DNA of 61,628 nt from a virus, in UHGV virus genome UHGV-1709118. One strand, given 5' to 3'. Every line of letters begins with the position of its first letter. Position 1 is the first letter of the stretch. Below the pieces are notes generated by a model. The model had not been told where the DNA came from. It searched no databases and was given only the letters and a program-made list of their open reading frames with translations. Shown one piece after another: positions 41,486 through 59,059 of this stretch. The translations under genes were made by a program, and so were the position numbers.

Positions 41486-41498
41486 AAAGTAATTATTT

Positions 41499-42467: not shown

Positions 42468-42480
42468 AGGAGAGAAATAA

Positions 42481-43659: not shown

Positions 43660-43661
43660 AA

Positions 43662-44694: not shown

Positions 44695-45077
44695 TTTTAA
44701 ATTTCTGCGAAATTTAAAATCAGAAGGAGAGAAAATATTTTAGAAATTCGTTTTTTGAATTTAAAATTGATTTGTATCCTTTTTCAAATTTAAAAATAGT
44801 TTAGAGAGGGAAATGTCCAGGCCAAATGGTTTTTAATAACAAATATAATTTTTTTCCCGAAAACTACCCCGGAGTACGCCAAACCATTAAACTATCTTTC
44901 ATTGGTAAATATCCATTGACCCCACAAAGGCCCCATCAAACAGTATCTTCTGTAAACAACCATTCATTAATCAAAAGAGAAATGATCTTGTCAATAGGCA
45001 AATTAAACAAAATTATTCTTCAGCAAAACGCATAAAGAAGAACTCTTAATTTCTTTTTCTTTTGTTCAATGTGTCAA

Positions 45078-45106
45078 TAGACAAAAGGCTATCTCGATGG
45101 TATAAT
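45078..45106 (+). promoter_or_regulatory. early promoter
   Basis: TAGACA, 17-bp spacer, TGgTATAAT, then conserved leader acagaaattaagg. Confidence 0.45.
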
Positions 45107-45140
45107 AAATACAGAAATTAAGGAAAGGGGTCAATGACCT

Positions 45141-45488
45141 ATGAAAAAGTTCTTCTCTATCATCGCTATTCTAGCAATCACTATCTCTGCTCTCACTACT
45201 TCTGCTTGCGCTCTTAGCACTCCTGCTGAAAATGCCAGATACTGTGCAACAAACAGCATCCACTATGGTATGAATACTGTTCGTCTGGTTCGCGCTACTG
45301 TTACTGCAACTCATGATGATGGATGTGTGACATTGAAAGACATGCGTGATGGCAACCTGTACGCCATTGATGATGATGGCCTTGTGAAAGGTGAGGACGT
45401 TCTCATTGCCATTGACGACAATGCTACACCAGGTTTTGTCTATGATGACATGATTCTTGGCTTCTGGAATGGTTCTGCTCTTAAATGA
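45141..45488 (+). CDS. secreted/lipoprotein-like small protein
   Basis: signal-peptide-like N-terminus MKKFFSIIAILAITISALTTSACA; GC-rich. Confidence 0.5.
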   Translation: MKKFFSIIAILAITISALTTSACALSTPAENARYCATNSIHYGMNTVRLVRATVTATHDDGCVTLKDMRDGNLYAIDDDGLVKGEDVLIAIDDNATPGFVYDDMILGFWNGSALK

Positions 45489-45496
45489 GCAGAACC
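45471..45496 (+). terminator. rho-independent terminator
   Basis: ggttctgctc-ttaaat-gagcagaacc then T-run; stop codon in loop. Confidence 0.55.
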
Positions 45497-45538
45497 ATTT
45501 TTCTTTTTTATTTTATAAATAAATAAATGAAAAAGGTA

Positions 45539-45567
45539 TTGACATTCTGGTTAAGATATGGTATACT
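45539..45567 (+). promoter_or_regulatory. early promoter
   Basis: TTGACA 45539-45544, 17-bp spacer, TGgTATACT. Confidence 0.55.
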
Positions 45568-45594
45568 ATAGATAGTAAAAGGAGGAAAGATCAA

Positions 45595-45798
45595 ATGAAA
45601 AAGACTTTTGAGTTCTATGCTTGCTCACCTGTTAAGACATGGCGAAACAACTACCAGGGAGAAAGTTGGCAGTGGGCTAAAGTTCAATGGTTTCGCTTTC
45701 CTTCTGGTTTGCGCAAGTGCTTAGTCTTTCCTGATGGTCAGGCAATCAAGATTGAACTTTGTAAGGTTAAAAATAAAAGAGAGGTTGGAGAAGTATGA
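45595..45798 (+). CDS. hypothetical early protein
   Basis: 67-aa ORF with RBS aaaggagg. Confidence 0.45.
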   Translation: MKKTFEFYACSPVKTWRNNYQGESWQWAKVQWFRFPSGLRKCLVFPDGQAIKIELCKVKNKREVGEV

Positions 45799-46010
45799 AG
45801 AAATACTGGATAGACAATGAATGTATGATAGATTTTATTGAAATGTATTGTGAGGGTAAAAGCTTTCTATGGAGATGCTTCTTTGGTTGGAGAAAGACTT
45901 CTTTCAAACCTAATGGAGACTTGCACTGGAGAGCTTACATTATACCAAAGAGAATATATCAGAAAGCATTAGTCTTGGCTAAGAAGTATGATGAGTATGA
46001 AGTAGTATGA
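45795..46010 (+). CDS. hypothetical early protein
   Basis: 71-aa ORF overlapping previous stop. Confidence 0.45.
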   Translation: MKKYWIDNECMIDFIEMYCEGKSFLWRCFFGWRKTSFKPNGDLHWRAYIIPKRIYQKALVLAKKYDEYEVV

Positions 46011-46252
46011 TGGGAGAAGAGGTAAGCTTAGCTTATCTCTTTTCTTTTGTTTAATATACTTGTTATAAACGAATGTCTTCGTTTTACAAGGCAACTTTCC
46101 GAATCAGTATACCACAAAGTCTGCTCAAAATCAATAGTCAAAATAGCTAAATTTAGAGAGAGAATTGGGATCCCGAATTGTGCAGTATACCTATTGACCT
46201 ATTGCGGCAAGTATGCTATTATATAATTACAAAAGGGAAGGAGATAAAACAA

Positions 46253-46438
46253 ATGAAGAACATCAAGAAGATCATTGGTGTTAAGATGGACAAAGCTAAC
46301 AAGGCGATCCTTGACAAGTGGAAGGAATGAATCAAAGAAGAGGGCCGCGACAAAGAAAGCAAGAATAACTTCGCTAACTACTACGCTAACTCTTATGAAG
46401 AGTATCAGCAGATTTGGGAAGTGGTTGAATGTTTGTAA
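46253..46438 (+). CDS. small ORF interrupted by a single in-frame TGA (46328-46330); possible readthrough or two short ORFs
   Basis: promoter and RBS upstream; 25 codons, TGA, then 36 further sense codons in frame. Confidence 0.25.
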
Positions 46439-46507
46439 AAAAAAGTCTTGACAAGAAGCTCAGTCTGTGGTATTATATAATCAAGATAAAGAAAGGGGAA
46501 ACAAAAG

Positions 46508-46840
46508 ATGACTAACAAGGAATTATTCGACAGTCGGTACACCGCAACCTACTATGAAAGCGCTTATGTGCTTCACAATGGAGACTTGACTCTCTACTAT
46601 CCCAACTGCGGTTATGACCCTGAGAAAATCATGGTCTGGAAGATCACTGCTGAGGACTACCGCTTTTATGGCAAAGGCGCTCTGAAAGAACTGCTGGAAG
46701 TTCTTTACAAGGAAGCTGCTCCTGAGCTGGTGGCTCTGGTTGATAGTAAACTCCGGTTGGCAACCGATGATGAGGAATGTGCTACGCTTGTTAAACACAA
46801 GTATCCCAACGACAAACAGCACTACATTGATATGTGGTAA
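46508..46840 (+). CDS. hypothetical early protein
   Basis: 110-aa ORF after promoter TTGACA-17-TGgTATTAT. Confidence 0.5.
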   Translation: MTNKELFDSRYTATYYESAYVLHNGDLTLYYPNCGYDPEKIMVWKITAEDYRFYGKGALKELLEVLYKEAAPELVALVDSKLRLATDDEECATLVKHKYPNDKQHYIDMW

Positions 46841-46861
46841 AAAGTAAAGGAGCTGATTAGA

Positions 46862-47083
46862 ATGATAACAATCCTTCACAAAGCAGGTATTGCTTTCAGG
46901 GGAGAATATCTCCGGGAAGCTTGCAGGAAGAACTACGATTGGCTTACTTTAATGTATGCCGTTGAAGATTATAACCGCGCTGTGAAGCGTTACTACAAGT
47001 ATGTTTCTCGCCACCACGCAGTTATCCTTAACAAATATCCTTCTGGCGATGTTATCGCTCTTGAAGAAGGGGTAATTCTATAA
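46862..47083 (+). CDS. hypothetical early protein
   Basis: 73-aa ORF followed by terminator 47084-47104. Confidence 0.45.
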   Translation: MITILHKAGIAFRGEYLREACRKNYDWLTLMYAVEDYNRAVKRYYKYVSRHHAVILNKYPSGDVIALEEGVIL

Positions 47084-47199
47084 GGGCCGCAAGGCCCTTT
47101 TTCTTTTTGTTATATGCTTATATGGTGAAACTTCTAGGCTTCTAGCAGTAAAAAAAAAAAAAAATAAATAAATAAAAATTTTTTTTGTTCAATTTACCT

Positions 47200-47228
47200 A
47201 TTGACAGCAAAGCAAAAGTATGGTATAA
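47200..47228 (+). promoter_or_regulatory. early promoter followed directly by GC-rich hairpin (no ORF)
   Basis: TTGACA 47200-47205, 17-bp spacer, TGgTATAAT 47220-47228; hairpin 47238-47272. Confidence 0.5.
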
Positions 47229-47462
47229 TAATTGCGGCGGCGCGCACACGACCATGGCCTCCCAGTGTGCGCCGAAATTCTGTCAATACGCAAATTGCAC
47301 AAAAATTTAGAGGAAAGTTTGGTGATTTTGCCCAGAAGTATTCATCCCGAAATGGTGTTTGTTTATAAAAAGTATAGCGGCAAAATATCATCAAAATTGA
47401 TTATTGAATTTCTTAAAAATTTTTGTTATAATAATTACAGAAAACAAAAGGAGGTCAAAAGT

Positions 47463-47624
47463 ATGACTGAATACCGTGACTGGTTGGTAGTTTTCCCCAA
47501 TGGTGGACAGATACACTTTGATAACAAGGGTATCGCAATGCGGAACGCGACTCGCAAGAAAGGCTCTGTTTATGAGTGTCATCTGGAAGAGAATGGGAAT
47601 GAAACTCTCATTCATATCTTTTGA
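47463..47624 (+). CDS. hypothetical small protein
   Basis: 53-aa ORF from ATG 47463 with RBS aaggagg; track ORF 47232-47624 N-terminal extension spans promoter/hairpin and is rejected. Confidence 0.4.
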   Translation: MTEYRDWLVVFPNGGQIHFDNKGIAMRNATRKKGSVYECHLEENGNETLIHIF

Positions 47625-47639
47625 TAGGAGGTATTATGT

Positions 47640-47819
47640 ATGAAGCAAACTTATTCTATCTATCATGCTGGCGATGAAGAAATTATCGGGCCTTTTGATT
47701 CCTTTTCATTGGCAGAGGATTTCTTTCATAGGTTAGCTCAGTATGCTACTACAATGTATTACTTGGTAGATGATTCTACTGGTGAAATTCTTCTTGATAT
47801 TGAAGAAATTAAGGCTTGA
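47640..47819 (+). CDS. hypothetical small protein (59 aa, not in ORF track)
   Basis: ATG 47640 preceded by ataggagg; open to TGA 47817-47819. Confidence 0.35.
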   Translation: MKQTYSIYHAGDEEIIGPFDSFSLAEDFFHRLAQYATTMYYLVDDSTGEILLDIEEIKA

Positions 47820-47877
47820 CATTTGGGCCTTACCGTGGTATAATTACCATAGAAACAAAGGAAAGAGGTTGATACTT

Positions 47878-48333
47878 ATGACTGACAAGATGTTGGCTTT
47901 TGATATGGACGGCACTATTGCTGACCTGTATGGAGTTAATGGTTGGCTGTCTAAACTGCGGAAGGAAGATGCAAGCCCTTACCTGGAAGCTAAACCCATG
48001 TGGGATGTGGATAAGCTCAACGAGCTTATCAATAAACTAAAGCAGGCTGGTTGGGAGATTGCAATCATCACTTGGCTTTCTAAAGAAAGCAGTCCTGAGT
48101 ATGCAAAGGCTGTGCGAGAAGCTAAAAAGGCTTGGCTCTTGAAATGGGGTTTCCCCTATGATCATTTTCATGGTCTAAAGTATGGAGCTACTAAAGCGAA
48201 TGCTGTTCGTAGAAAAGCATCTAAGGCAATTCTTATTGATGATAATAAGAAGGTTCGTGATAGTTGGCATTTGGGAGAAACTGTCAATCCTGAAACTTGT
48301 GACATCATTGATTTTTTGGCTTCCCTGCTTTAA
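47878..48333 (+). CDS. HAD-superfamily phosphatase, 5-prime(3-prime)-deoxyribonucleotidase-like
   Basis: N-terminal FDMDGTIADL motif (DxDGT); start at ATG 47878 after promoter and RBS. Confidence 0.55.
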   Translation: MTDKMLAFDMDGTIADLYGVNGWLSKLRKEDASPYLEAKPMWDVDKLNELINKLKQAGWEIAIITWLSKESSPEYAKAVREAKKAWLLKWGFPYDHFHGLKYGATKANAVRRKASKAILIDDNKKVRDSWHLGETVNPETCDIIDFLASLL

Positions 48334-48353
48334 GCAGGGAGTCAAAAAAGTTC

Positions 48354-48382
48354 TTGACAAATGAGAAAAAATCTGGTATAAT
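48354..48382 (+). promoter_or_regulatory. early promoter
   Basis: TTGACA 48354-48359, 17-bp spacer, TGgTATAAT; leader acagaaattaagaaagaggt. Confidence 0.55.
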
Positions 48383-48415
48383 GAGTACAGAAATTAAGAA
48401 AGAGGTAGATGCAAC

Positions 48416-49123
48416 ATGAGCATTGATAGGCGCAGACATTATGTTCTGCTTCTGGACACTGAGACAGCAAACACCATCACTGACCAAAAAGGCCGATTAG
48501 ACATGACCTCAGTTCTTGTCTATGATTGCGGGTGGTGTGTTATGGACACAAGAGGAAATATCTACAAGGAACAATCCTTTGTTAATCGAGATATTTTCTT
48601 TGATGAAAGTGAGCTTATGAAATCCGCCTACTATGCGGAAAAGATTCCCCAGTATCTGGAAGATATTCGACAGGGTATCCGGCAAGTAGCTAACACTTAC
48701 CAGATTCGACAGGCTATGCTTGCAGACATGGCAGAATATGGTATTACAGAGGTAGTTGCCCACAATGCAAGATTCGACCTGAACGCATTGAATTTACTTC
48801 AACGCTGGACTACCAAAAGTAAATATCGCTATTGGTTCCCCTATGGTACCGATATTTGGGATACTCTCAAAATGGCAAGAGACGTTATTCTAAAGATGCC
48901 TACCTATAAAAGGTTCTGTGAACAACACGGTTTCTTAACCAAAACTGGTAAACTCTCAGCGACAGCAGAAAATTTGTATAGATTCATCTCCAAAGACCCT
49001 ACTTTTCAGGAAGAACATAAAGGTCTTGACGATGTGCGAATTGAGCGAGAGATTATGGTCTACTGCTATCGGCAAAAGAAGAAAATGCGGAAAAAACTTT
49101 TTGAAAATCAAAAAACCGCTTGA
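48416..49123 (+). CDS. DnaQ-like 3-prime-5-prime exonuclease (DEDDh)
   Basis: Exo motifs LLLDTETAN, VAHNARFDL, EHKGLDDV. Confidence 0.6.
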   Translation: MSIDRRRHYVLLLDTETANTITDQKGRLDMTSVLVYDCGWCVMDTRGNIYKEQSFVNRDIFFDESELMKSAYYAEKIPQYLEDIRQGIRQVANTYQIRQAMLADMAEYGITEVVAHNARFDLNALNLLQRWTTKSKYRYWFPYGTDIWDTLKMARDVILKMPTYKRFCEQHGFLTKTGKLSATAENLYRFISKDPTFQEEHKGLDDVRIEREIMVYCYRQKKKMRKKLFENQKTA

Positions 49124-49232
49124 CAAAACAAAAGGAAAATGATATAATATAAGAGAAGTGAGGGAGATAAAACCCTCCCCACTTCCTTAACAATTAGGGT
49201 AGCGACCTACCGCACAGAAAGGAATTGATATT

Positions 49233-49589
49233 ATGACTAACGAGAAGAAGATTACTAACAAGGGCGCCCTTCAGTATGTTCTGGACAACTGCGAGATTCC
49301 TGCCGACGTTCGTGCCAAGATTGAGATTCTGCTCCATCAGCAGGAGAACAAGAGCCGCGGTAGTGGTAAGCCTACTGCAACTCAGACTGAGAACGCACGT
49401 CTGATTGAGGTGATTGCCGACACTCTGCCCAAGGGCGAAGCTTTCACCATCTCCGACATTACCAAGACCATTCCTGAGCTGAACGGCTTTACCCCTCAGA
49501 AGGTTGGCCCCATGCTCAAGAAGCTGGTTGAAACTGGTCGAGCCACCCGTGACACCAACAAGGGCAAGGCATACTACACTATGGTGTAA
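49233..49589 (+). CDS. hypothetical protein, paralog of 55318-55734 (possible winged-helix)
   Basis: shared motifs with 55318 ORF (QTEN...LI...KTIPEL...TPQ...PM.K.LV..G.A..DT.KG.A); about 50 percent GC. Confidence 0.5.
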   Translation: MTNEKKITNKGALQYVLDNCEIPADVRAKIEILLHQQENKSRGSGKPTATQTENARLIEVIADTLPKGEAFTISDITKTIPELNGFTPQKVGPMLKKLVETGRATRDTNKGKAYYTMV

Positions 49590-49648
49590 TAATTAAATAA
49601 AGAGGGGCATTAAGCCCCTCTTTATTTTCTCAAAAAGGATGGTGTTTA

Positions 49649-50011
49649 ATGATAGATGAGACTAGGGTTAAACATCTTCAAAAGGTGTTAGACCTTGATA
49701 GAGAACAAGCTTTAGCAGTTATTGCCGATGATGAAGCAATAGATAAAGGTGCAGATCTTTTCCCACTTACTGATGAACAAAAGAAAGTAGAAAAGAAAAT
49801 GCGGTTATCCGGCAAAGAGAAAGGCAAGTATACTATGAATGCTCCCCGACAGCGCAAGGTTGACAATGACAAACATCGCTTGATTGAGATTATTGCGGAA
49901 TCTCTTGAACAACTTGAAATTGAAACTACCATCAATAACCCAGAACGAGAAATTGAGATAGTTTTTAATGAAAGACGTTTCAAAATTACATTAAGCGCTC
50001 CTAGAAAATAA
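49649..50011 (+). CDS. hypothetical protein, paralog of 55759-56148
   Basis: shared DKG...LT-EQ-KV-KK ... LI ... NPER-I ... F ... TL motifs. Confidence 0.5.
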   Translation: MIDETRVKHLQKVLDLDREQALAVIADDEAIDKGADLFPLTDEQKKVEKKMRLSGKEKGKYTMNAPRQRKVDNDKHRLIEIIAESLEQLEIETTINNPEREIEIVFNERRFKITLSAPRK

Positions 50012-50263
50012 TAATAAAACCGGCTTATTTTTTATAGGCCGGTTTTCTTTTTTGCCCAATACTTTTTAATGGCAAATGTTTGACGGCCCGCGCATGGTCA
50101 AGCGCTGCCGCATTTCAATTATACCAGGTAATCCGACTTTTGTCAATGGGCAAACCGCACAATTATTTGACTTTTTGTTTTCCCAAAATTGGTGATTCTG
50201 CCTATTGATTTTTTTATTAAAATTTTATATAATATAATTGTTCCAAGGGAAAGGAGAAACAAA

Positions 50264-50458
50264 ATGAAGATTAATTATAAATCTTTCAGCGTGGAAGTTT
50301 TTGGTGAAAATATTTGGGGCCAAACCTATCTGAACAGAGTAGGCTTTGATTCTGAGGAAGAAGCCGATAAGTTCATTGAATCTCTGGAAAAGGAAGAAGG
50401 AATTTATTCGGCAATTAAAATTGTAAATACAAGTTACAATTTCAGAAAAAACCCTTGA
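50264..50458 (+). CDS. hypothetical small protein
   Basis: ATG 50264 with RBS aaaggaga. Confidence 0.4.
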   Translation: MKINYKSFSVEVFGENIWGQTYLNRVGFDSEEEADKFIESLEKEEGIYSAIKIVNTSYNFRKNP

Positions 50459-50515
50459 CAAACAAACCAAGACGTGTTATAATAAACACAGAAATTAAGA
50501 AAGAGGTTGATAATT

Positions 50516-50737
50516 ATGAAAGCAAGCACTAACACAAAAATCAATATCGACATCACCGGCATCTGCATGTGGTTCCTCTCTTCCCTCTTCATTTGGCTGG
50601 GCTGGAAAGTTCTGGTGGCTCACTTCGGCTTGCCTTACTTTACCTATCTGGAAATCTTCGCCATGCGTATGGGGCTGGATGGTCTTGCAAGCATCTTCCG
50701 CAAGAAAAAAGAAGTGGAAGGCGAAAATAAGGCTTGA
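50516..50737 (+). CDS. small membrane protein
   Basis: 73-aa ORF with hydrophobic core; promoter TTGACA 50455-50460. Confidence 0.45.
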   Translation: MKASTNTKINIDITGICMWFLSSLFIWLGWKVLVAHFGLPYFTYLEIFAMRMGLDGLASIFRKKKEVEGENKA

Positions 50738-50762
50738 CAAACGTCAAGCCGAATGGTATAAT
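50734..50762 (+). promoter_or_regulatory. early promoter with palindromic -35 region
   Basis: TTGACA 50734-50739 inside palindrome ggcttgac-aaac-gtcaagcc (50731-50750); TGgTATAAT 50754-50762. Confidence 0.5.
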
Positions 50763-50786
50763 AATAACAGAAAGAGGTTGATGTAA

Positions 50787-50930
50787 ATGATTTCTACTAT
50801 TGCTCTGGCTTCCCTGGCTGCTATTATGATGGTGAAGGTGTTCGTTGCGGTTGAGCGTGAGGATTACCGCAAAATGTTCGCTAGCGGATTTGAGTTCGCT
50901 CTTCTGCTTCTGACTTTGGCTAATATTTAA
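50787..50930 (+). CDS. small hydrophobic peptide (47 aa, not in ORF track)
   Basis: ATG 50787 after agaggttgatg; open to TAA 50928-50930. Confidence 0.3.
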   Translation: MISTIALASLAAIMMVKVFVAVEREDYRKMFASGFEFALLLLTLANI

Positions 50931-50943
50931 GGAGGTAAATATA

Positions 50944-51192
50944 ATGAGAATTTATTCTATTAAACATCTGTTCGACAAAGAAGTTGCTGGTTTTTATCGA
51001 GAAATGAAAGAAAGCGTTGAAACAAAAGAAGAAGTAGAAAATGCCGTTTATCTGGTAATGGGTATGCAGGTTATGGCAAGTATTATCGCCGAAGGAAGTG
51101 ATGAAGAGGTTCTTGCCATTGAACATGAAACTTGGGATTATTGGATTCCAAAGTTTAAGAAACTTCTGGAAAATCTTCCTGAAAAGACTTGA
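50944..51192 (+). CDS. hypothetical early protein
   Basis: 82-aa ORF with RBS aaggaggt. Confidence 0.45.
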   Translation: MRIYSIKHLFDKEVAGFYREMKESVETKEEVENAVYLVMGMQVMASIIAEGSDEEVLAIEHETWDYWIPKFKKLLENLPEKT

Positions 51193-51217
51193 CATACGTC
51201 AAGTTCTATGATATAAT
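51189..51217 (+). promoter_or_regulatory. early promoter with palindromic -35 region
   Basis: TTGACA 51189-51194 inside palindrome acttgac-atac-gtcaagt (51187-51204); TGaTATAAT. Confidence 0.5.
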
Positions 51218-51248
51218 AAAGCCATAATAAAGAAAGGAAGTCGATATC

Positions 51249-51446
51249 ATGACTAAAGAAGAACTTTTAAACACTTTGCAGGAGGTCGGCTATGAATGGA
51301 GCAGAACGCTCAATGAGCACAAGTATGACTACTCGGATTTCGAGTGGAAGATGCTCGGCTGGGTAGCTGGTGAATTGATTGACCATTTCGATCAGGCAAT
51401 TGATTCAATTCGTGATGAACTTCAGGAGGAGGAAGAAGAAGAATGA
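51249..51446 (+). CDS. hypothetical acidic small protein
   Basis: 65-aa ORF. Confidence 0.45.
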   Translation: MTKEELLNTLQEVGYEWSRTLNEHKYDYSDFEWKMLGWVAGELIDHFDQAIDSIRDELQEEEEEE

Positions 51447-51691
51447 GAATGACAGAAAGAATCGAGAGATTTTTCAATCTTGATGAAGAGGAGAAGGAAA
51501 TTCTCAAAAAGGCTAGTTATATTCTCTGCGACATGGCAGAAAATGTTGATGGTTTAGGAAAAATTTCCTTAACTTATGAGAATTTTACTGAACCATTCGC
51601 AAAAACTCGGAGTTATGATGAAGGGAATCTTTATGATTTCTCATACCTATTAGCTGTTCTTTCTAAGGCAGAAACAATTGAAATTGAATAA
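51443..51691 (+). CDS. hypothetical early protein
   Basis: 82-aa ORF overlapping previous stop; terminator 51695-51719 follows. Confidence 0.45.
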   Translation: MRMTERIERFFNLDEEEKEILKKASYILCDMAENVDGLGKISLTYENFTEPFAKTRSYDEGNLYDFSYLLAVLSKAETIEIE

Positions 51692-51776
51692 AAATAAGGG
51701 CCTTTGGCCCTTATTTTTTACTTGACAGATTTTTCTTTCTATGTTATAATAACAATAGAAAAGGAGATGAAGCAAA

Positions 51777-51980
51777 ATGACAGATTTTGCAAGAACTGAA
51801 ATTCTTCTTAAAGCTTTACAGGAAGCAGGAAGATACATGCGGAAATATTTACCCGCAGAAATGCCATTAGGCGAAGATGCTGATATTACAAGATACTGTT
51901 TAATAAATGGTAATCAAGACCCGGAAGGCTCTAAGTTTGTAGAATACTTCATTCTTAAAGCATTTGATAATTATAAGTAA
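51777..51980 (+). CDS. hypothetical early protein
   Basis: 67-aa ORF after promoter TTGACA 51722-51727 and RBS aaggaga. Confidence 0.45.
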   Translation: MTDFARTEILLKALQEAGRYMRKYLPAEMPLGEDADITRYCLINGNQDPEGSKFVEYFILKAFDNYK

Positions 51981-52226
51981 GGGCTAAAAGCCCTTACTTT
52001 TTTATTTCTATATTTATTATAAACAAAAGTCAAGTGATAGTAAAGTTTGGCGGCGCGTTGATGGCTGACATGCGCCGCAATTTAATTATACCTCAAGCCA
52101 CGCCTTTTGTCAAGAGCAAAAGTGCATAAAAACAAGGCAGACAAAAATCCCGAATTTGTGCATTTCGCCAATAGACAAATAAGACCTGCCGTGTTATACT
52201 ATAATCACAGTAAGGGAGGAGATAAC

Positions 52227-52871
52227 ATGACAGAGATGGAACAGACTGTTCTTCAGTGGCTTGAAGATTTGGCGATTGACCCTTCAATGACCGATTGGGA
52301 CATTCAGAACCGGATGAAAGAGATTAAGCTTGGAAGCGAAGCTGCTATGGATTGCGGTTCTAGCAAGATTTGTCTCATCCCTCACAACGCCAACTTTGTT
52401 ATTAAGTGGACGTATAGCGACCCTGACGAGCTTACCAATGATGAAGCTCTGAAAGAGGTTGACATGTATAACAAAGCTGTCGAAGCAGGTTTAGGCATGT
52501 TCTTCCCCAAGACCGAGCTTTTCTGCACAATGAACGGAATCAATTTCATCAAGCAGGAGAAGATTGATTTTGCGGTTTGTGGCTGTTCCTATCAGACCTT
52601 TAAGCGGTATAAAACCAAGACCAAAACCGCAAGTGACCAGAAAGCGCAACTCATGAACAAGTGCTTCAAGAAAGCGGCTCCTAATGGGCGCTATGCAAGA
52701 AACTTAGACCCTCTTTGGGCTAAGATGGCTCTTGTTATCTATGGCAAAAGACTTTGCAAAACTCTTTGCGAGTTTGTCATTGAGAACAGAATCAATGACC
52801 TGCACGAATCCAACATTGGTTACAAAAATGACCGCCCAATCATCTTAGATTTTAGCGGTTTTGATAGATAA
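52227..52871 (+). CDS. hypothetical protein
   Basis: start at ATG 52227 after RBS aagggaggag; track ORF 52107 start lies in promoter/hairpin region. Confidence 0.45.
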   Translation: MTEMEQTVLQWLEDLAIDPSMTDWDIQNRMKEIKLGSEAAMDCGSSKICLIPHNANFVIKWTYSDPDELTNDEALKEVDMYNKAVEAGLGMFFPKTELFCTMNGINFIKQEKIDFAVCGCSYQTFKRYKTKTKTASDQKAQLMNKCFKKAAPNGRYARNLDPLWAKMALVIYGKRLCKTLCEFVIENRINDLHESNIGYKNDRPIILDFSGFDR

Positions 52872-52876
52872 AAGGC

Positions 52877-52905
52877 TTGACAAAGACCGGACTGTATGGT
52901 ATAAT
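52877..52905 (+). promoter_or_regulatory. early promoter
   Basis: TTGACA 52877-52882, 17-bp spacer, TGgTATAAT. Confidence 0.55.
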
Positions 52906-52937
52906 ACAGGTACAATAAAAGAAAGGAAGTAAAAAAC

Positions 52938-53336
52938 ATGAAAGCTACTGGTATCATTCGCCGCATCGATGACCTGGGTCGGGTGGTCATCCCCAAGGAA
53001 ATCCGCCACAATATGCACATCTGGGAAGGAGACCCTTTGGAGATTTATACTGCTTCGGATGAAATTGTTCTCCGCAAGTATGTTCCATCCGCAGAAAACA
53101 AGGCTTCTATTGCTCAGAAGTGGTTAGAGGACAATGCTCATATGTTATATGGCACTTCTGCAAAGTTCAGTATTGAGGGCAGAACTACTGTTTGCGAAGT
53201 TATCAGCAATAATCATCGCCTGACTGGAAAAGCAACAGCCACAACAAATGACACTTTCATTCCCGCGGTTGGTATGGTTATTGCTTATTGCCGAGCCGTT
53301 GGTTGGACTATTCCCAAAGAACTTATTGAGGATTAA
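52938..53336 (+). CDS. AbrB/SpoVT-family transcriptional regulator-like protein
   Basis: N-terminus GIIRRIDDLGRVVIPKEIRHNMHIWEGDPLEIY...IVLRKY matches AbrB swapped-hairpin domain signature. Confidence 0.6.
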   Translation: MKATGIIRRIDDLGRVVIPKEIRHNMHIWEGDPLEIYTASDEIVLRKYVPSAENKASIAQKWLEDNAHMLYGTSAKFSIEGRTTVCEVISNNHRLTGKATATTNDTFIPAVGMVIAYCRAVGWTIPKELIED

Positions 53337-53658
53337 AAAATTGCAAAAAGGCTTGACAAAGCTCTTCTTCTGTGATATAATACAAGTACAGTCAAGGGAG
53401 GTGATAAAGTGCTTTAGTGGTAAACAAATGAATAAAAAGGAGTAAAGCGAATGATAGATATTACTAGACACCCGCCGCCATGCTAACCCAATTATTACAG
53501 AATTTTGTTTGCACTGTTGTTTTACATGAACGAAATAAAACCATATAGTGCTGCGGAGATTTTCTTAGCTTTTTCTATTGCTCCAAAGTAATAAACAACA
53601 AGAAAGCTATCAGAGTAGGCGCCGCTCTGATAAAATAAAACAAAAGGAAGTTTTACAA

Positions 53659-53946
53659 ATGACAAAACAGGTATTATTTCTTGACCTTGAAGGAACTGTC
53701 CATGCCGGTTTGCTTTTGGATGATGGTAACATTATCTGCGGATGTTGTGGTTCTTTGATAGAACTTGGTGATTATTTACTACTCCATGTTTACAAAGAGT
53801 GGGTAGATATTGAGGAAGAAATCTGTGGGGATGATTTACTCCTTAAAGATTTCCAGAGAAAAGTAGACAGCTTATCTGTTAAAGAGATAGAAAAAATTCT
53901 TACTGAAACAGATGCAAGTAATTTGATAAAATCTCTTGACAAGTAA
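53659..53946 (+). CDS. hypothetical Cys-containing small protein
   Basis: ATG 53659 after RBS aaaggaag; preceded by about 250-nt ORF-free leader. Confidence 0.4.
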   Translation: MTKQVLFLDLEGTVHAGLLLDDGNIICGCCGSLIELGDYLLLHVYKEWVDIEEEICGDDLLLKDFQRKVDSLSVKEIEKILTETDASNLIKSLDK

Positions 53947-53990
53947 GTAAAAGCATGATATAATAACAATAGAAAACAGGAAAGGAATTG

Positions 53991-54524
53991 ATGATTATGT
54001 TCTCTATCAAAAATTGTAATAGCGTTCTGGAAGGTGCTGCTCAGGTCGTTAAACTGTTCGGGGATGAACCCTTCACTTCTGATAGATATGATGCGGCTCG
54101 TGGTAAGGGACGCTCTAAGGCGGAAACTCTCTTCAACCACAACATCATCAAAGTGGTGGGTAAAGCGCCGGTCTATGATACAAATTGGCCTAGATGCAGA
54201 GAAACTGCTCCTTATGTAACAAACCGTGCCGGCGAACTTCTTATGAAGTATAAGGAATACAGAGAGCTGCCGGTAGCGGCAAAGGAAGCTCTAATTGCAG
54301 CCAATGGTGGGGAAGAGTTGGGCATCCACTATGATAGAAGTGATATTACTATCTGCTATCGAGATACTTTTGCCTTTAATGCAAGCGGGTATCAAGAATA
54401 TCTCCAGGAAGTTTATACGAATCTTCTTTTTCAGATAGAAAGTAAGAAACAGGAAGTTCTTAAAATGGAGGATTGTTTTGGTAAGGTAGTTAAAGCATTT
54501 CAAGCAAATGCAATGAAGTTATAA
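53991..54524 (+). CDS. hypothetical protein
   Basis: ORF track 53988-54524; promoter TTGACA-TGaTATAAT overlaps previous gene end. Confidence 0.45.
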   Translation: MIMFSIKNCNSVLEGAAQVVKLFGDEPFTSDRYDAARGKGRSKAETLFNHNIIKVVGKAPVYDTNWPRCRETAPYVTNRAGELLMKYKEYRELPVAAKEALIAANGGEELGIHYDRSDITICYRDTFAFNASGYQEYLQEVYTNLLFQIESKKQEVLKMEDCFGKVVKAFQANAMKL

Positions 54525-54613
54525 AAATCTTTCACTTTGTGCAATTTATCTATTGACAAAACAAAGCAAAGATGCTATAATGAATACAGAAATTAAGAAA
54601 GGAACTGATAGCT

Positions 54614-54835
54614 ATGCTGTGTATGAAGAACGTGTTCAATGTCATGAAAGGTATCACTCGCGTAAGAGATAAGTTCAGAGGAAAAGGGTTCACTTTTTCT
54701 GAGTATAGCACCGATGACTATCAGAATTACTTACGTTATTTACAGACTGCGTTTGAATTAAAAACTATGGACAAAGAGCAGGAACTTGACAAATTGAAAG
54801 CTAATCTTGACAAAGTGGAAAAGGAAATGAGATAA
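54614..54835 (+). CDS. hypothetical small protein
   Basis: 73-aa ORF; bidirectional-type terminator 54841-54867 follows. Confidence 0.45.
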   Translation: MLCMKNVFNVMKGITRVRDKFRGKGFTFSEYSTDDYQNYLRYLQTAFELKTMDKEQELDKLKANLDKVEKEMR

Positions 54836-54881
54836 AAAAATGAGGGATTTTTCCCTCATTTTTTTTTGTACATTTTGCCTA

Positions 54882-54910
54882 TTGACAAAACCGCAGCTTT
54901 ATGGTACAAT
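54882..54910 (+). promoter_or_regulatory. promoter driving ORF-free GC-rich hairpin transcript
   Basis: TTGACA 54882-54887, 17-bp spacer, TGgTACAAT 54902-54910. Confidence 0.5.
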
Positions 54911-55020
54911 GGCGCGGCGCCCACGGCTGTGGAGCGCCGAAATTTCAATTATACCACGCGGCACAAAATTTGTCAAGAGTTAAACTGCACAAAATCTATT
55001 TGGGAAAAATCCCACTTTTT
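54911..55020 (+). ncRNA. candidate small RNA (5-prime GC hairpin, weak terminator)
   Basis: promoter immediately upstream; hairpin 54911-54939; gggaaaaatccca + T-run at 55001-55020; no RBS-ATG ORF. Confidence 0.3.
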
Positions 55021-55317
55021 GTGCAATTTGCCTATTGCAATTTGGGTGAAATCTGATATAATAAATAATGTCAGGAGGGAGTAGCCCAAGAAATCCTAGG
55101 GCGGCCGACTTAGAGAAAGTATAGGAAGTAAACGGAATACATCAAGTGGTAAGTCTTATATCATGTGGTAATTGTTATTGCCCAACATGCTCTGGAAGCC
55201 GTAAATCTTGTGAAAAGTTTGCGAAACCTCTTGACAAACCCCAAGAAACATGCTATAATAAGCATGTAATCAAGAGAAGGACAAACTCTTAAAAACCAGA
55301 AAGCGAGATAGGTGTTT

Positions 55318-55734
55318 ATGGAAAATACTAACAAGAGAATTACTAAGCGTGAGCGTTTCCAGTCTTTGATTGAGCTGGTGGAACTGTGCGAAGGCCGTGA
55401 GGATGAAGGCTTTGACTTTGAGGGTCTGACCGATTTCCTTTCCAATGAGATTCGCCTGCTGGACGCTAAGAAGGGTTCCAATTCCCGCAAGCAGACTGCC
55501 CGCCAGACTGAGAATGAGCATTTTAAGGCTCTGATTGCCGAGCGGTTGACCGAAGAGGGCATGACTATTGCAATGCTCCGCAAGACCATTCCTGAACTGG
55601 AGGATTTGACTCCCCAGCGTATTGCCCCTATGTGCAAGGCTCTTGTCTCTGAGGGTATTGCTTACAAGGATACCTGCAAGGGTATCGCCCACTTTTACAA
55701 GGCGCAGGCCGTAGTAGAAGAGGAAGAGGGCTAA
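55318..55734 (+). CDS. hypothetical protein, paralog of 49233-49589
   Basis: see paralog; ATG 55318. Confidence 0.5.
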   Translation: MENTNKRITKRERFQSLIELVELCEGREDEGFDFEGLTDFLSNEIRLLDAKKGSNSRKQTARQTENEHFKALIAERLTEEGMTIAMLRKTIPELEDLTPQRIAPMCKALVSEGIAYKDTCKGIAHFYKAQAVVEEEEG

Positions 55735-55758
55735 GGCCCTCTTCCCTAGAAGGGAGGT

Positions 55759-56148
55759 ATGTTTTTGGATAAAGCAAAAGAAGCAATCGCAAGAATCCAA
55801 GCCGGCATCAAATGCAGCTATGAAAAAGCAGTAGAAATCTATAAGACAGATTGCGAGGTTGACAAAGGCATCCCGCATGAATGGGATTTGACCGAGGAAC
55901 AGCAAAAGGTAGCAAAGAAATATACTATTACCGGGCAACATACTAAGAAGCATGACCGCAAGGCTCCGGTCAAAAGAGAAAGAAAAGAGAACCCCACTAA
56001 AGCAAATTTGATTGCGGAACTTGCAGGTTTTCTTGAATCTTTGGGGATTTGTGACGTAAAAATTGCAAATCCTGAGCGACAGATTGCTTTTTCTGTGGAT
56101 AATAACGCCTTTGAGCTGACTTTAGTTCAAAAAAGGGCCAAAAAGTAA
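55759..56148 (+). CDS. hypothetical protein, paralog of 49649-50011
   Basis: see paralog; RBS gggagg. Confidence 0.5.
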   Translation: MFLDKAKEAIARIQAGIKCSYEKAVEIYKTDCEVDKGIPHEWDLTEEQQKVAKKYTITGQHTKKHDRKAPVKRERKENPTKANLIAELAGFLESLGICDVKIANPERQIAFSVDNNAFELTLVQKRAKK

Positions 56149-56205
56149 AGTTTTTGGCCCTTTTCACTTAAAAAAGAGCTAATTTTGACGAAAAAGGTGA
56201 TGTAA

Positions 56206-56550
56206 ATGCAACAAAAGAAAGAGTATTTGTATGTAGGTCACTATTTTGACATAGAAGGCAACTACATTCTCAAAATAGGCACTACTAACGATTTAGCCCG
56301 GAGACAGCAAGAGCATACCAGAAATTATAAGCGTTCACCTAAGTTTACTATGCCGAAATCCGCTAAGTTTGTCTATGATTGGCATCTGCCTTTATCTAAG
56401 TATTCAACTTTGCGGTATGAGGATAAGAATCGTGCAGCATGGCAGGAATCTTCTATCGGCGAATTTGTCCGCAATGACAGATTTTGCTGTAAGCAAAAGC
56501 CCAAGAAAGTAAAGGTTACTATCCGCAAAACTTATGAGATCGAGTTATAA
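56206..56550 (+). CDS. GIY-YIG-like nuclease domain protein
   Basis: YLYVGHY...ILKIGTTNDLARRQQEH resembles GIY-YIG motif (GIY ... YIG-T-N-L-R ... E/H). Confidence 0.4.
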   Translation: MQQKKEYLYVGHYFDIEGNYILKIGTTNDLARRQQEHTRNYKRSPKFTMPKSAKFVYDWHLPLSKYSTLRYEDKNRAAWQESSIGEFVRNDRFCCKQKPKKVKVTIRKTYEIEL

Positions 56551-56563
56551 GGAGGAAGAAAAC

Positions 56564-56782
56564 ATGGTTGTTATTAAAAAGCAGTGCGAAGTTCACTTAT
56601 CCCAGGAGGAAATTGACTGTCTTGAAAAAGCAGCTGACATTCTCAATGAAATTTGGTCAGTAATGCCTGCTGAAAGTTATATTGGTGATAAGAAAGTAAT
56701 GTATGCTGAGGATGTCGGAGAAATGTCAGATAATCTGCAAGACTTGGCAACTATCGGAGAAAATATTGTGGTTGAAGATTAA
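56564..56782 (+). CDS. hypothetical small acidic protein
   Basis: ATG 56564 after RBS aaggagga. Confidence 0.4.
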   Translation: MVVIKKQCEVHLSQEEIDCLEKAADILNEIWSVMPAESYIGDKKVMYAEDVGEMSDNLQDLATIGENIVVED

Positions 56783-57101
56783 CGGTTACCAAAGGATAGT
56801 GGTTAATAGCCACTATCCTTTTTTATCCCTATACTTGTTATAAGCAAAAGTAAAGTAATAACAAAACTCAGCGGGCCGCACTTGGTGGATGCGGCCCGAA
56901 TTCGCGTCAATACACATTTTCCACAATTTTTCTGCTTTTGATTTGTACAATTTTACTTATTGACATTTTCCTAAAATTATGTTATTATATAATCACAAAA
57001 GGAAAGGGGATTTAAAAATTTCAAAAAAATAAAAAAGGTCTTGACAAACCAGGGCAAAGATGCTATAATGAATACAGAAATTAAGGAAAGAGGTTGATAG
57101 T

Positions 57102-57377
57102 ATGAATGAACGCAGAGACTTCATTGCAAAGAACTGGGGTGAGGATGTTCTTGAAGCTATTGATAGCTGTGAGCCGTTAAACATTACCTTTGGCCAGTTT
57201 TTGGACAAGTGCGTTGCTTGCGGTGGCAACTGGGGCGGTATGCTTCTAACTGGCCTGAAGAAGTTGCGGCCTGAGATTTGGGAAGCCATTCCCCAAAATA
57301 TGGGTCTTTATGCTTGGCAGTGCATCTGCAATACTTTAATCCTTGCTGGTGTGGTTATGGAAGAAGAAGAGGGCTAA
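57102..57377 (+). CDS. hypothetical early protein
   Basis: 91-aa ORF after promoter TTGACA-TGcTATAAT and conserved leader. Confidence 0.45.
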   Translation: MNERRDFIAKNWGEDVLEAIDSCEPLNITFGQFLDKCVACGGNWGGMLLTGLKKLRPEIWEAIPQNMGLYAWQCICNTLILAGVVMEEEEG

Positions 57378-57410
57378 AAAGCCCTTTTCCATAAAGAAAG
57401 GAAGGTAGAA

Positions 57411-57692
57411 ATGGAAATTAGAAAACCTACGAATTGGTTGGATGCTAAAGGGATGCTTGACAAAACACTACAAGCAAGATCTACAGTAATCACTGAAGCC
57501 CTTGGGCAAATTATGTTTAATCTTCTAAGTGCCGCAGAAGATGGAAAATTTGCTACTACTATTAATCTTCTAGAAGATACAAAAATTATTACTCAAATAC
57601 TTGAGGAAGCAGACTATAAGGTTCAATTTCTTAAACCAAATGGTGAATACTCACAATATATTGTTTGCTGGGAAAAGGAGGACGAAGAATAA
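57411..57692 (+). CDS. hypothetical early protein
   Basis: 93-aa ORF. Confidence 0.45.
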   Translation: MEIRKPTNWLDAKGMLDKTLQARSTVITEALGQIMFNLLSAAEDGKFATTINLLEDTKIITQILEEADYKVQFLKPNGEYSQYIVCWEKEDEE

Positions 57693-57883
57693 TGATTATC
57701 AAAATTACTGACCGCTACAACGGCGATTTCGCGAAGTTTGATTCTTTGCAGAAAGCCTATGACTACTTCATGGACTATGACAAAGAATGTGAGGGAGATT
57801 GGTGGCCATTGATTACTATTGATGGGGCTTGGGTTCCTCTGGAAGAGTTTTTCGTGATGTATAAAGAAAAGGGGTGCAAATGA
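57692..57883 (+). CDS. hypothetical small protein, tandem paralog A
   Basis: MIIKITDRYNGDFAKFDSLQKAYDYF... similar to next ORF. Confidence 0.4.
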   Translation: MIIKITDRYNGDFAKFDSLQKAYDYFMDYDKECEGDWWPLITIDGAWVPLEEFFVMYKEKGCK

Positions 57884-58074
57884 TAATGACTATCAAAATT
57901 ACTGAGTTATACGATGATGATGTGGCAGAGTTTAAGTCTCTGCCAGAAGCATGGGCTTATTATTGTTATTGGGAAAAAGAATCTAAAGGGAAATGGTTGC
58001 CACTGATATTTATCAATAGAAAGATGGTATCACATGAAACGTTCTATAAGATGTGTAGAAAGGTGGGTGTTTAA
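57880..58074 (+). CDS. hypothetical small protein, tandem paralog B
   Basis: MTIKITELYDDDVAEFKSLPEAWAYY... similar to previous ORF. Confidence 0.4.
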   Translation: MIMTIKITELYDDDVAEFKSLPEAWAYYCYWEKESKGKWLPLIFINRKMVSHETFYKMCRKVGV

Positions 58075-58542
58075 TTGTCTTTACTCTTGTTATTCATTGG
58101 TCTTTCTATCGCCAATGTGGTTTTTTCGACAATCAAAAGCATTGTAACTATTAACGGCACACCATTTTCCGCAAGCATGATTTCCGCTTTATACTATGGT
58201 TATTATAACATAGTTCTTATTTACACAGTCGCGGATTTCCCTCTGTGGCAGAAGGTATTAGTTACCTTTGGCTGTAATCTGGTTGGCGTGTATGCGGTTA
58301 AGTGGGCGGAAGCAAAAGGAAGAAAAGAAAAGTTGTGGCGAATTGAGGTTACTGTCCCTAGTGAATTTACAAAACAACTTCACGAAAGATTAAACCCAAT
58401 CCCGCACAACTATATTGAAAATGTAGGTAAATATTCAATTTTTAATATTTACTGTGCTACACAAATGGAGAGTAGCCAAGTCAAGAAAATTCTGGTGGAT
58501 TACAATGCCAAATACTTTGTGACAGAAACTAAAGAACTCTGA
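58075..58542 (+). CDS. membrane-associated hypothetical protein
   Basis: 155-aa ORF (TTG start) with hydrophobic N-terminal half; terminator 58532-58570. Confidence 0.4.
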   Translation: MSLLLLFIGLSIANVVFSTIKSIVTINGTPFSASMISALYYGYYNIVLIYTVADFPLWQKVLVTFGCNLVGVYAVKWAEAKGRKEKLWRIEVTVPSEFTKQLHERLNPIPHNYIENVGKYSIFNIYCATQMESSQVKKILVDYNAKYFVTETKEL

Positions 58543-58623
58543 GAATACTCAGAGTTCTTTTTTTGTTTTTTCTAAAAAATTATGTTATAATATATATAGA
58601 AATTAAGGAAAGGAGCTTTTCTA

Positions 58624-58740
58624 ATGACCTGTGAATTATTAAAGGCACTTGCGGTGATTATTGAATACTGCTTAAAGCAGGATAATTGCAAAGTTTGTGT
58701 TATGCGTGATTTCTGTTCTAAGATGCCTTGTGAGTGGTAA
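58624..58740 (+). CDS. Cys-rich mini-protein (38 aa, not in ORF track)
   Basis: ATG 58624 after aaggaaaggag; CxxxxC...CxxC pattern. Confidence 0.3.
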   Translation: MTCELLKALAVIIEYCLKQDNCKVCVMRDFCSKMPCEW

Positions 58741-58827
58741 ATTACTTTAAAGATTTTAGAGATAGAAAGGCCCGTTTTAGGGTCGAAATTTCGCACGTCT
58801 AGGTCATCAGAAAAAAAATATCTGGAT

Positions 58828-59028: not shown

Positions 59029-59053
59029 CATAAGGCTGGTTTTATGGTATACT
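59025..59053 (+). promoter_or_regulatory. promoter for ORF-free transcript
   Basis: TTGACA 59025-59030, 17-bp spacer, TGgTATACT 59045-59053. Confidence 0.55.
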
Positions 59054-59059
59054 ATATAT

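Follow-up and report, generated by a model that had tools for sequence, protein, structure and literature searches.

Small novel genes set behind repeated regulatory sequences are known from the hyperplastic regions of T4-type phages, where promoter-early stem-loop (PeSL) cassettes have been described (Arbiol et al. 2010, PMC2839356; Comeau et al. 2014, PMC4122927). These accounts portray repeated host-sigma consensus promoters, A/T-rich upstream sequence, GC-rich stem-loops and a Shine-Dalgarno sequence ahead of small ORFans, with a subclass that has the stem-loop just downstream of the −10 box; close relatives differ by insertions, deletions and replacements bounded by the motifs. In SPO1, a Firmicute phage that encodes its own sigma factors, the host-takeover module groups ~26 small early genes into ~12 short operons, whose promoters and ribosome-binding sites are of the kind seen in highly expressed genes (PMC6873191). 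Here we analyse the viral sequence UHGV-1709118 (61,628 nt, the window throughout), which carries between 45 and 59 kb a dense array of sigma-A-type promoters and small open reading frames (ORFs). We regard it as highly probable that this is an early region of the host-takeover type, in which host-sigma promoters serve portable cassettes that turn over by recombination between repeats. The array can be placed beside the T4-type PeSL regions and the SPO1 module as their analogue in a Firmicute phage, and its layout is in this sense already known. The part that departs from known systems is a GC hairpin accompanied by convergent promoters.

The PeSL features just listed recur in the array, where a stem-loop just behind the −10 is likewise seen at some promoters. 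It shows a repeated sigma-consensus promoter, concentrated in a variable region ahead of ORFans, together with motif-bounded insertions and deletions relative to a near-identical sister contig. The comparison to T4-type early-region cassettes drawn in the original prediction, a note made from this DNA before the present analysis, was apt. There are also differences. The array belongs to a Firmicute-type, siphovirus-like phage as opposed to a Gram-negative T4-like myovirus; its promoters have an extended −10 (TGn), and its leader is rigid, with the ATG 32–33 nt after the −10, and is shared across genera. Moreover, its stem-loop is followed by a conserved polar flank and mostly accompanied by an antisense or convergent promoter, which the available parts of the PeSL description do not contain. 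PeSL cassettes are further characterised by the formation of encapsidated mini-circles and by their T4-like myovirus lineage. Because the portal and the terminase are related to those of phAss-1 and of Enterococcus phages, the array is understood as an analogue of PeSL cassettes, not a homologue. With SPO1 it shares the clustering of small genes in short operons behind strong sigma-A promoters and ribosome-binding sites, as judged for the array by sequence features. Among the array ORFs, no Pfam or PHROG homology to the SPO1 takeover proteins (gp37–gp60) was found, and we know of no repeated leader or convergent-promoter hairpin in SPO1. The module of that phage is reportedly treated in work by Stewart et al. 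from 1998.

Promoters, leaders and the exchange of cassettes

Promoters were scanned as TTGACA-N17-TATAAT with at most one mismatch, using dinucleotide-preserving shuffles of the window as background, and the region 44500–61628 was also read directly. The window holds 29 matches, 17 of them perfect (12/12), compared with 1.43 ± 1.07 in the shuffles (maximum 4). Within the 13.7 kb from 45000 to 58700 there are 22 (19 plus, 3 minus), where at least 15 near-consensus promoters had originally been claimed, and another lies at 59025. Promoter, leader and terminator motifs all exceed chance expectation. The TG of the extended −10 is present in all 19 plus-strand matches of this region, at a spacer of 17 bp, and weaker extended −10 promoters at 46194, 47404, 50205, 52172, 55035 and ~58567 occupy the remaining gaps. 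The form cTATTGACA, earlier given for the whole set, holds for a subclass of ~8 promoters that also have an upstream TGTGCA-type motif, but the others read ggcTTGACAAA. Four promoters have no ORF (47201, 54882, 55035, 56960), and perfect promoters on the minus strand run in the opposite direction at 50146, 52113 and 54976. Across 448 promoters of the family, the consensus includes an A/T-rich upstream region; a GC hairpin directly follows the −10 in 53 of these and in 3 promoters of the window, the other units using separate upstream terminators.

The sister contig, IMGVR_UViG_3300045988_145614 (L068; 137.7 kb), is 94–96% identical to the window and allows constraint to be assessed. Substitutions affect 4 of 308 positions in the hexamers and the TG. 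Spacers are changed at 19 of 330 positions (Fisher p = 0.0025), and the remaining intergenic DNA is changed at 196 of 2882 (p = 2e-5). The hexamers are thus about five times better conserved than the spacers, and their having fewer changes than either spacers or other intergenic DNA argues for purifying selection. The array is genuine, far above chance and selectively maintained.

The leader ACAGAAATTAAG / ACAGAAATTAAGRAA occurs exactly at 45111, 48387, 50488, 54586 and 57074, and with one mismatch at 58596; matches with up to two mismatches number 8, as against 1.9 expected. While the exact leader is therefore real and above chance, it stands behind just 5–6 of ~24 promoters and not behind "many" as had been stated, the remainder having related purine-rich leaders of 18–28 nt. 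That length applies to 18 of 22 units, with matches of 7–10 nt to AGAAAGGAGGTGATC; the ATG follows the end of the −10 after 24–34 nt, likewise in 18 of 22. The 3′ half of the leader, AAGRAAAGAGGTTGAT, is a purine-rich extended Shine-Dalgarno sequence, a near complement of the Firmicute 16S rRNA 3′ end, whose consensus was used for the comparison. The arrangement extends well beyond the window: TATAAT-N3-TACAGAAATTAAGRAA is found exactly in 44 IMG/VR stretches (~35 contigs) and in 15 contigs of metagenome-assembled genomes (MAGs). In these related contigs the exact promoter-leader precedes 53 distinct proteins from 43 unrelated families, and in 49 of 63 cases the ATG stands 32–33 nt behind the −10.

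Comparison with L068 shows differences of cassette size. The stretch 50154–52037 of the window (1.9 kb, five promoters, seven ORFs) is absent from the sister contig, with the left breakpoint at the element 50075–50146 and the right one at 52041–52113; the L068 junction is a hybrid of these two flanking hairpin/antisense-promoter elements, the crossover falling in CTTTTGTCAA, which both share. The sister contig carries an additional ORF, with terminator and promoter, whose junction lies in a 29-bp −10/leader overlap. ORF 46862–47083 is swapped in L068 exactly from ribosome-binding site to terminator, the divergent paralogue 57880–58074 is present in the window only, and the region 59398–60254 is replaced. 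Eight of the 35 ORFs are without a sister homologue, and most of the ORFs are without one in ~1.4 Mb of related loci. The region had been called modular and recombinogenic, with cassette shuffling expected to emerge from comparative genomics, and both are supported by the cassette-sized gains, losses and replacements (the 1.9-kb block, the extra cassette, the ORF swap, the paralogue) with junctions in regulatory repeats. Turnover of the gene content by cassette recombination is supported by the sequence comparison.

The similarity among promoter-leaders could in principle reflect convergence on an expression optimum, the cassettes being immobile and the indels being ordinary events in intergenic DNA. 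The family-wide promoter consensus is indeed generic, and the conserved parts coincide with optima (−35, TG, −10 and the 16S-complement match in the 3′ half of the leader), but no functional optimum is apparent for the 5′ half of the leader, ACAGAAATTA, which is yet identical before 43 unrelated families at rigid spacing. The promoters P54553 and P57041 furthermore share an identical run of 32 nt that includes non-consensus spacer bases, and both the crossover (50075/52041) and the −10/leader overlap lie inside repeats. We consider convergence an unlikely account overall. Given the 43 families, the rigid spacing and the 32-nt identity across the spacer, a portable promoter-leader module is the better explanation than convergence alone.

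For the early, host-takeover-type region that we favour, the following course of events is suggested. Right after DNA entry, host polymerase with its primary sigma factor would fire ~22 promoters, each laid out as an A/T-rich or TGTGCA upstream element, TTGACA, 17 bp and TGnTATAAT, with no phage factor required. Each transcript would begin with a leader of ~20–28 nt that combines start site and extended Shine-Dalgarno sequence and places the ATG 32–33 nt after the −10, and each unit would be expected to yield one to five small proteins strongly and at once. Intrinsic terminators would close about half of the units and the others would be read through. The phage sigma-like protein, itself encoded behind such a promoter, would presumably redirect transcription to the late genes on the opposite strand. 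The repeated promoter-leader and intergenic sequences could act as portable homology through which recombination adds, deletes and swaps cassettes, so that gene content would be quickly replaced on a conserved regulatory scaffold. We infer the early timing from the host sigma-A-type promoters, the position of the array beside, and divergent from, the sigma-like and late genes, and the synteny with cultured Enterococcus phages.

Several considerations weigh against this picture. Conclusions on timing, on the sigma switch, on what the proteins do and on the use of the promoters by host polymerase are all drawn from sequence, and the host assignment depends on MAG labels and one distant relative. 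Promoters of perfect consensus may be limited in escape, making high output less than assured. With half of the units lacking terminators, read-through and long overlapping transcripts are likely. Finally, few of the early proteins can be assigned, the majority matching no family.

A GC hairpin, often between head-on promoters

Alignment of the long intergenic regions revealed a repeated module in which a terminator is followed by a TGTGCA-class promoter in sense orientation, intact or in decayed form, by a hairpin rich in GC with the flank GAAATTYC, and then by a minus-strand consensus promoter facing the hairpin, a spacer of ~40 nt and the next TGTGCA-class promoter with its gene. Neither the conserved hairpin nor the antisense and convergent promoters had featured in the original prediction. 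Six copies are found in the window (47229–59108), all on the plus strand, and 39 in 579 kb of related loci. Hairpin and genes run in the same direction in each of the 27 copies examined from nine relatives and in 6/6 in the window. The stem is supported by covariation: alignment cells of the stem are paired in 93% of cases, compared with 72% in shuffles and 26–48% when one partner is slid by 1–3 columns; compensatory changes are seen in 8 of 9 stem pairs in an alignment that was itself fitted to the model. Pairs in the stems are nearly all Watson-Crick, with few G-U pairs, and neither strand folds better than the other.

Both promoters accompany 18 of 42 copies, the antisense one alone 12 and the sense one alone 4, while 8 have none, counts that are biased since the covariance model used for detection included both −10 boxes (two of the six window copies lay outside its seed alignment). 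An antisense promoter with at most two mismatches accompanies 30 of the 42 copies, 27 times in perfect form. Among 19 convergent pairs, the −10 boxes are separated by 37 nt in 11 and by 36–38 nt in 15. A spacing of 37 nt implies start sites ~23–25 nt apart, inside each other's footprint at the known size of that of polymerase. Within the window, antisense RNAs are predicted to end 102–104 nt downstream at the bidirectional terminator of the upstream gene (from the 52113 promoter after ~102 nt at 51975–51999, from the 54976 promoter after ~104 nt at 54834–54865); the antisense promoter at 50146 is likewise directed toward a bidirectional terminator, 50016–50046. Promoterless copies keep the hairpin and a GAATTT flank just behind the terminator.

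Known elements resemble this arrangement in part. The pR/pL promoters of coliphage 186 and the P2-like switches are single-copy lysis-lysogeny switches with face-to-face promoters ~60 bp apart and genes both ways. As in 186, strong promoters meet head-on at short distance, where polymerases interfere. Unlike 186, the element is repeated six times per genome, its starts are ~23–25 bp apart with a covarying hairpin between them, and there is no antisense gene. Intrinsic bidirectional terminators and cis-antisense RNAs offer the likeness of an intergenic GC stem-loop and of an antisense end at a shared terminator. The 3′ flank of the hairpin, however, is GAAAUUUC(C), with no U-tract directly after the stem as expected of an intrinsic terminator, and the element sits downstream of a canonical terminator. 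It matched no Rfam family at gathering or E-value thresholds, the hairpin model found no match in the last 50 kb of Enterococcus faecium phage VRE9_3, and literature searches returned no description of repeated convergent-promoter hairpins in phage early regions.

A number of candidate roles were rejected. Mimicry of a CRISPR repeat is contradicted by stems that differ between copies and by a ATTGAAAT-like flank that lacks conservation between phages. A fixed motif in the stems, Chi-like or of another kind, would require a shared 5–8-mer, and none is found. Strand-specific RNA structure would leave a G-U or energy bias, which is absent (11 copies favour one strand, 14 the other). The antisense RNAs have no consistent ORF or Shine-Dalgarno sequence that could indicate peptide coding.

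As a tentative interpretation, somewhat ahead of the others but short of an even chance, the polar GC hairpin with its GAAATTYC flank may be an insulator against read-through from one cassette to the next, reinforced by the head-on antisense promoter, which, where present, would also yield an antisense RNA of ~100 nt. It is to be set against this that no U-tract lies directly 3′ of the stem, that both strands fold equally and that 8 of 42 copies are promoterless. A bolder proposal, which we put slightly lower, is that the hairpin between head-on promoters represents a new class of regulatory element, present about six times per early region in a large uncultured family of 80–200 kb Clostridia phages; it might act as a collision insulator or switch, or yield paired complementary hairpin RNAs with a takeover or anti-defence role.

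Less probable again, at about one chance in a handful or a little better, is that hairpin and antisense promoter form the 5′ part of a small-RNA gene of ~100 nt, stabilised by the 5′ stem and acting either in trans or against the upstream early mRNA at its 3′ end. The frequent retention of a mostly perfect antisense promoter, the predicted transcript end at the bidirectional terminator, the stem covariation and the want of an ORF would all fit. They are offset by conservation that does not reach beyond the stem and the GAAATTYC flank, by the eight promoterless and four sense-only copies, by the detection bias noted above, and by the lack of strand bias and the scarcity of G-U pairs, as would be expected of a DNA-level or two-strand element. 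More doubtful still is a selfish palindrome resembling a miniature inverted-repeat transposable element (MITE), or a recombination scar, without function for the phage. The two promoters do make the arms an imperfect palindrome of ~125 bp, copies exist at all stages of decay, and the element is a recombination breakpoint, but the strict polarity, the compensatory stem changes across distant phages and the rigid −10 spacing of 37 nt speak against it, and no insertion polymorphism was seen, with neither a target-site duplication nor an empty site in one close relative.

Gene units and small proteins of the array

The plus strand from 45141 to 59028 encodes ~35 ORFs of 38–235 aa, each with a Shine-Dalgarno sequence, in ~22 gene-bearing units (Table 1). 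Thirteen units have one ORF, seven have two, one has four and one has five, so that the original description of one or two small ORFs per promoter fits 20 of the ~22 but not the two longest. Terminator-like sites number 36 in 42000–61628, as against 13.1 expected. Only ~11 of 22 units are closed by a GC hairpin and T-run, and the predicted monocistronic cassette with terminator is accordingly found in about half.

Table 1. Coordinates of array units, hairpin copies and the late/early boundary in the window
Feature	Position	Strand	Description
Late/early boundary	40304–41527	.	sigma-like gene and divergent promoter 41499–41527
Unit 1	45078–45501	+	promoter 45078–45106 (11/12, TG), exact leader ACAGAAATTAAGG, terminator 45466–45501
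Unit 1 ORF	45141–45488	+	115 aa, N-terminus signal-peptide-like
Unit 2	45539–46046	+	promoter 45539–45567; ORFs 45595–45798, 45795–46010; terminator 46012–46046
Unit 3	46194–46438	+	TGTGCA-class promoter 46194–46222 (10/12, TG); ORF 46253–46438
Unit 4	46448–47099	+	promoter 46448–46476; ORFs 46508–46840, 46862–47083; terminator 47082–47099
Orphan promoter	47201–47289	+	perfect TGTGCA-class promoter 47201–47229, running into hairpin copy 47229–47289; no ORF; antisense −10 lost
Units 5–6, first part	47404–48342	+	promoter 47404; ORFs 47463–47624, 47640–47819
Units 5–6, second part	47404–48342	+	perfect promoter 47816–47844; ORF 47878–48333 (HAD-like)
Unit 7	48354–49123	+	perfect promoter, exact leader, ORF 48416–49123 (235 aa)
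Unit 8	49120–50046	+	perfect promoter; −10 to ATG 84 nt, hairpin inside
Unit 8 ORFs and terminators		+	ORFs 49233–49589, 49649–50011; terminators ~49597–49625, 50016–50046
Antisense promoter with hairpin copy 50075–50125	50075–50146	−	perfect, −35 at 50146, −10 at 50118
Units 9–13, promoters	50205–51999	+	50205 (weak), 50455 (exact leader), 50734, 51189, 51722
Units 9–13, ORFs		+	seven, 50264–51980; terminators 51690–51718, 51975–51999
Antisense promoter with hairpin copy 52041–52092	52041–52113	−	perfect, 52113–52085
Units 14–18, promoters	52172–54865	+	52172, 52877, 53353, 53936, 54553 (exact leader); terminator 54834–54865
Units 14–18, ORFs		+	52227–52871, 52938–53336 (SpoVT/AbrB domain), 53659–53946, 53997–54524, 54614–54835
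Complete convergent unit	54882–54976	.	sense promoter 54882–54910; perfect antisense promoter 54976–54948
Convergent-unit hairpin	54911–54947		37-nt GC hairpin and GAAATTTCA
ORF-less promoter	55035–55235	+	55035–55062 (TTGCAA-16-TATAAT, TG); ~170 nt without ORF
Unit 19	55231–56815	+	perfect promoter 55231–55259; terminator ~56786–56815
Unit 19 ORFs		+	55318–55734, 55759–56148, 56206–56550 (T5orf172), 56564–56782
Promoterless hairpin copy and orphan promoter	56862–56988	+	copy 56862–56913; TGTGCA-class promoter 56960–56988
Unit 20	57041–58560	+	perfect promoter, exact leader; terminator 58531–58560
Unit 20 ORFs		+	57102–57377, 57411–57692, 57692–57883, 57880–58074, 58075–58542
Array end	58564–59205	+	extended −10 promoter (TGtTATAAT, ends 58595), one-mismatch leader, ORF 58624–58740
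Array end, distal part		+	AbrB/MraZ-like ORF 58828–59028; promoter 59025–59053; hairpin copy 59059–59108; terminator ~59170–59205

Substitution rates of the ORFs against the sister contig are 3.7%, 2.1% and 10.2% at codon positions 1, 2 and 3, and it follows from the preponderance of third-position changes that the ORFs are real genes under coding selection. That the array should be primarily a device at the level of DNA or polymerase (a sink for host polymerase, a DNA-entry motor or a set of transcription-primed origins), with ORF expression secondary, is very improbable: the very dense super-consensus promoters, some of them ORF-less (47201, 54882, 56960), and the position of the region within a few kb of one sister-contig end would suit it, but the ORFs are under coding selection behind strong ribosome-binding sites, and the promoters face the nearby contig end and not the genome, the wrong direction for DNA pulling.

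Most ORFs returned no Pfam, PHROG or PDB match. ORF 52938–53336 has a SpoVT/AbrB N-terminal DNA-binding domain (E = 2e-17 to SpoVT), and a second AbrB/MraZ-like protein is encoded by ORF 58828–59028, for which tblastn found a homologue in the related locus L075 and none in L082. ORF 47878–48333 has a weak match to HAD-like hydrolases and ORF 56206–56550 a T5orf172 domain. ORF 48416–49123 belongs to PHROG 20187 and has a DTET motif and a weak match to a DNA polymerase exonuclease subunit; its product is possibly an exonuclease. A role of the early ORFs in host takeover or anti-defence is suggested by analogy.

Individual units show further features. The 61 codons of ORF 46253–46438 include an in-frame TGA at codon 26, where TGG (Trp) stands in the sister contig and Trp likewise in the homologue from locus L078. 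A nonsense polymorphism, an error in sequencing or read-through could account for it. Stop-codon recoding as in phAss-1 was ruled out, as reading TAG as sense merges no real ORFs. As a separate observation, TAG, the codon that phAss-1 recodes, is never used as a stop in ~70 window ORFs (TAA and TGA only), though TAG trinucleotides are common. A two-gene module is duplicated: 49233–50011 and 55318–56148 are paralogous, with 72% DNA identity over 58 nt in the first gene, and both proteins share homologues in relatives.

Non-coding stretches follow some of the promoters. Behind the perfect promoter 53353, 277 nt separate the −10 from the ATG at 53659, with a fold z of −0.5 and no convincing ORF. 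The orphan promoter 56960–56988 has a leader and Shine-Dalgarno sequence and no ORF. The ~170 nt after promoter 55035 fold at z = −2.6 compared with shuffles, with faintly similar promoter-proximal sequence in locus L096, and possibly represent a candidate small RNA. A structured non-coding stretch of ~150 nt (z = −2.1) also follows the hairpin copy 59059–59108; promoter-proximal sequences of L075 and L082 resemble its start by eye, with a GC hairpin, CCGAAWTT and then a CATATGCGAT-like sequence. Searches with nhmmer for the non-coding segments 53382–53660, 55060–55240 and 59050–59215 gave matches in the sister contig only.

Phage identity and biological meaning

The window belongs to a tailed gut or rumen phage of ~137 kb, distantly related to phAss-1 and probably with a host among Clostridia. 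Its minus strand from 4 to 41 kb encodes structural genes, among them a 2857-aa tape measure, portal and terminase. A sigma-factor-like gene (PHROG "sigma factor") follows at 40304–41350 on the same strand, behind its own sigma-A-type promoter, and the divergent perfect promoter at 41499–41527 opens the plus-strand block. The portal shares 38% identity with its phAss-1 counterpart and ~30% with those of 137–142 kb Enterococcus phages. IMG/VR contains 67 related loci on contigs of up to 185 kb, one of them being the almost identical L068 of 137.7 kb. The region had no megablast match among GenBank phages, and a search of the window returned no tRNAs. The phAss-1 paper assigns its clade to Clostridia hosts, and the MAG contigs with the exact promoter-leader are mostly labelled Clostridia or Acutalibacteraceae.

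The same array is present in phAss-1, with 28 promoter sites in the last 24 kb as against 0.08 expected; the phAss-1 paper makes no mention of promoters. The cultured phage VRE9_3 is syntenic: one of its strands encodes sigma factor, PHROG 3314 and terminase, and the other, next to these, a run of small genes that has a promoter array and two copies of PHROG 20187. Antisense promoters are seen at 33833 and 35460 of its locus L132, and the cultured syntenic relatives comprise the E. faecium phages VRE9_1 to VRE9_4, EF1 and EF5. In both genomes the dense consensus-promoter arrays are without annotation (phAss-1, locus L131, OQ749652.1, 124–136 kb; VRE9_3, locus L132, 121–128 kb), and several annotated opposite-strand or tiny "hypothetical proteins" overlap promoters or hairpins there and may be spurious.

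Other features of the window lie outside the array. The plus strand at 41868–43053, downstream of promoter 41499 and between the late module and the cassettes, specifies a ClpP-like protease (Pfam CLP_protease, E = 3e-23) as well as a cell-wall hydrolase domain. A reverse transcriptase ORF lies at 1368–2354 (Pfam RVT_1, E = 3e-14), and an adenine-rich stretch upstream of it ends in ATTACCTCGCGCCCG (800–814), the same 15-mer occurring at 1–15. Positions 1–2354 look like a diversity-generating retroelement, with a putative template repeat at ~700–815 and the variable repeat in a gene beyond the left edge. Close behind the last early-type gene, at 61163–61288, stand three tandem 42-bp copies (two identical, one 69% identical). 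The matching end of the sister contig is ~1 kb away, and the copies could be an origin, packaging or terminal feature.

Lastly, the findings have importance for practical use as well as for phage biology. The promoter-leader module, apparently portable and ~60 bp long from −35 to ATG, is a possible expression part for Clostridia, and the ~125-bp hairpin element provides a synthesisable test of head-on consensus promoters at 37-nt spacing. The ~35 small early ORFs constitute a candidate pool for host-takeover or anti-defence proteins, functions that are suggested by analogy. The model of ORFan shuffling by regulatory cassettes is extended from T4-like coliphages to the widespread, little-studied large Firmicute phages of gut and rumen, a clade that includes the published phAss-1 genome, whose array had not been reported.

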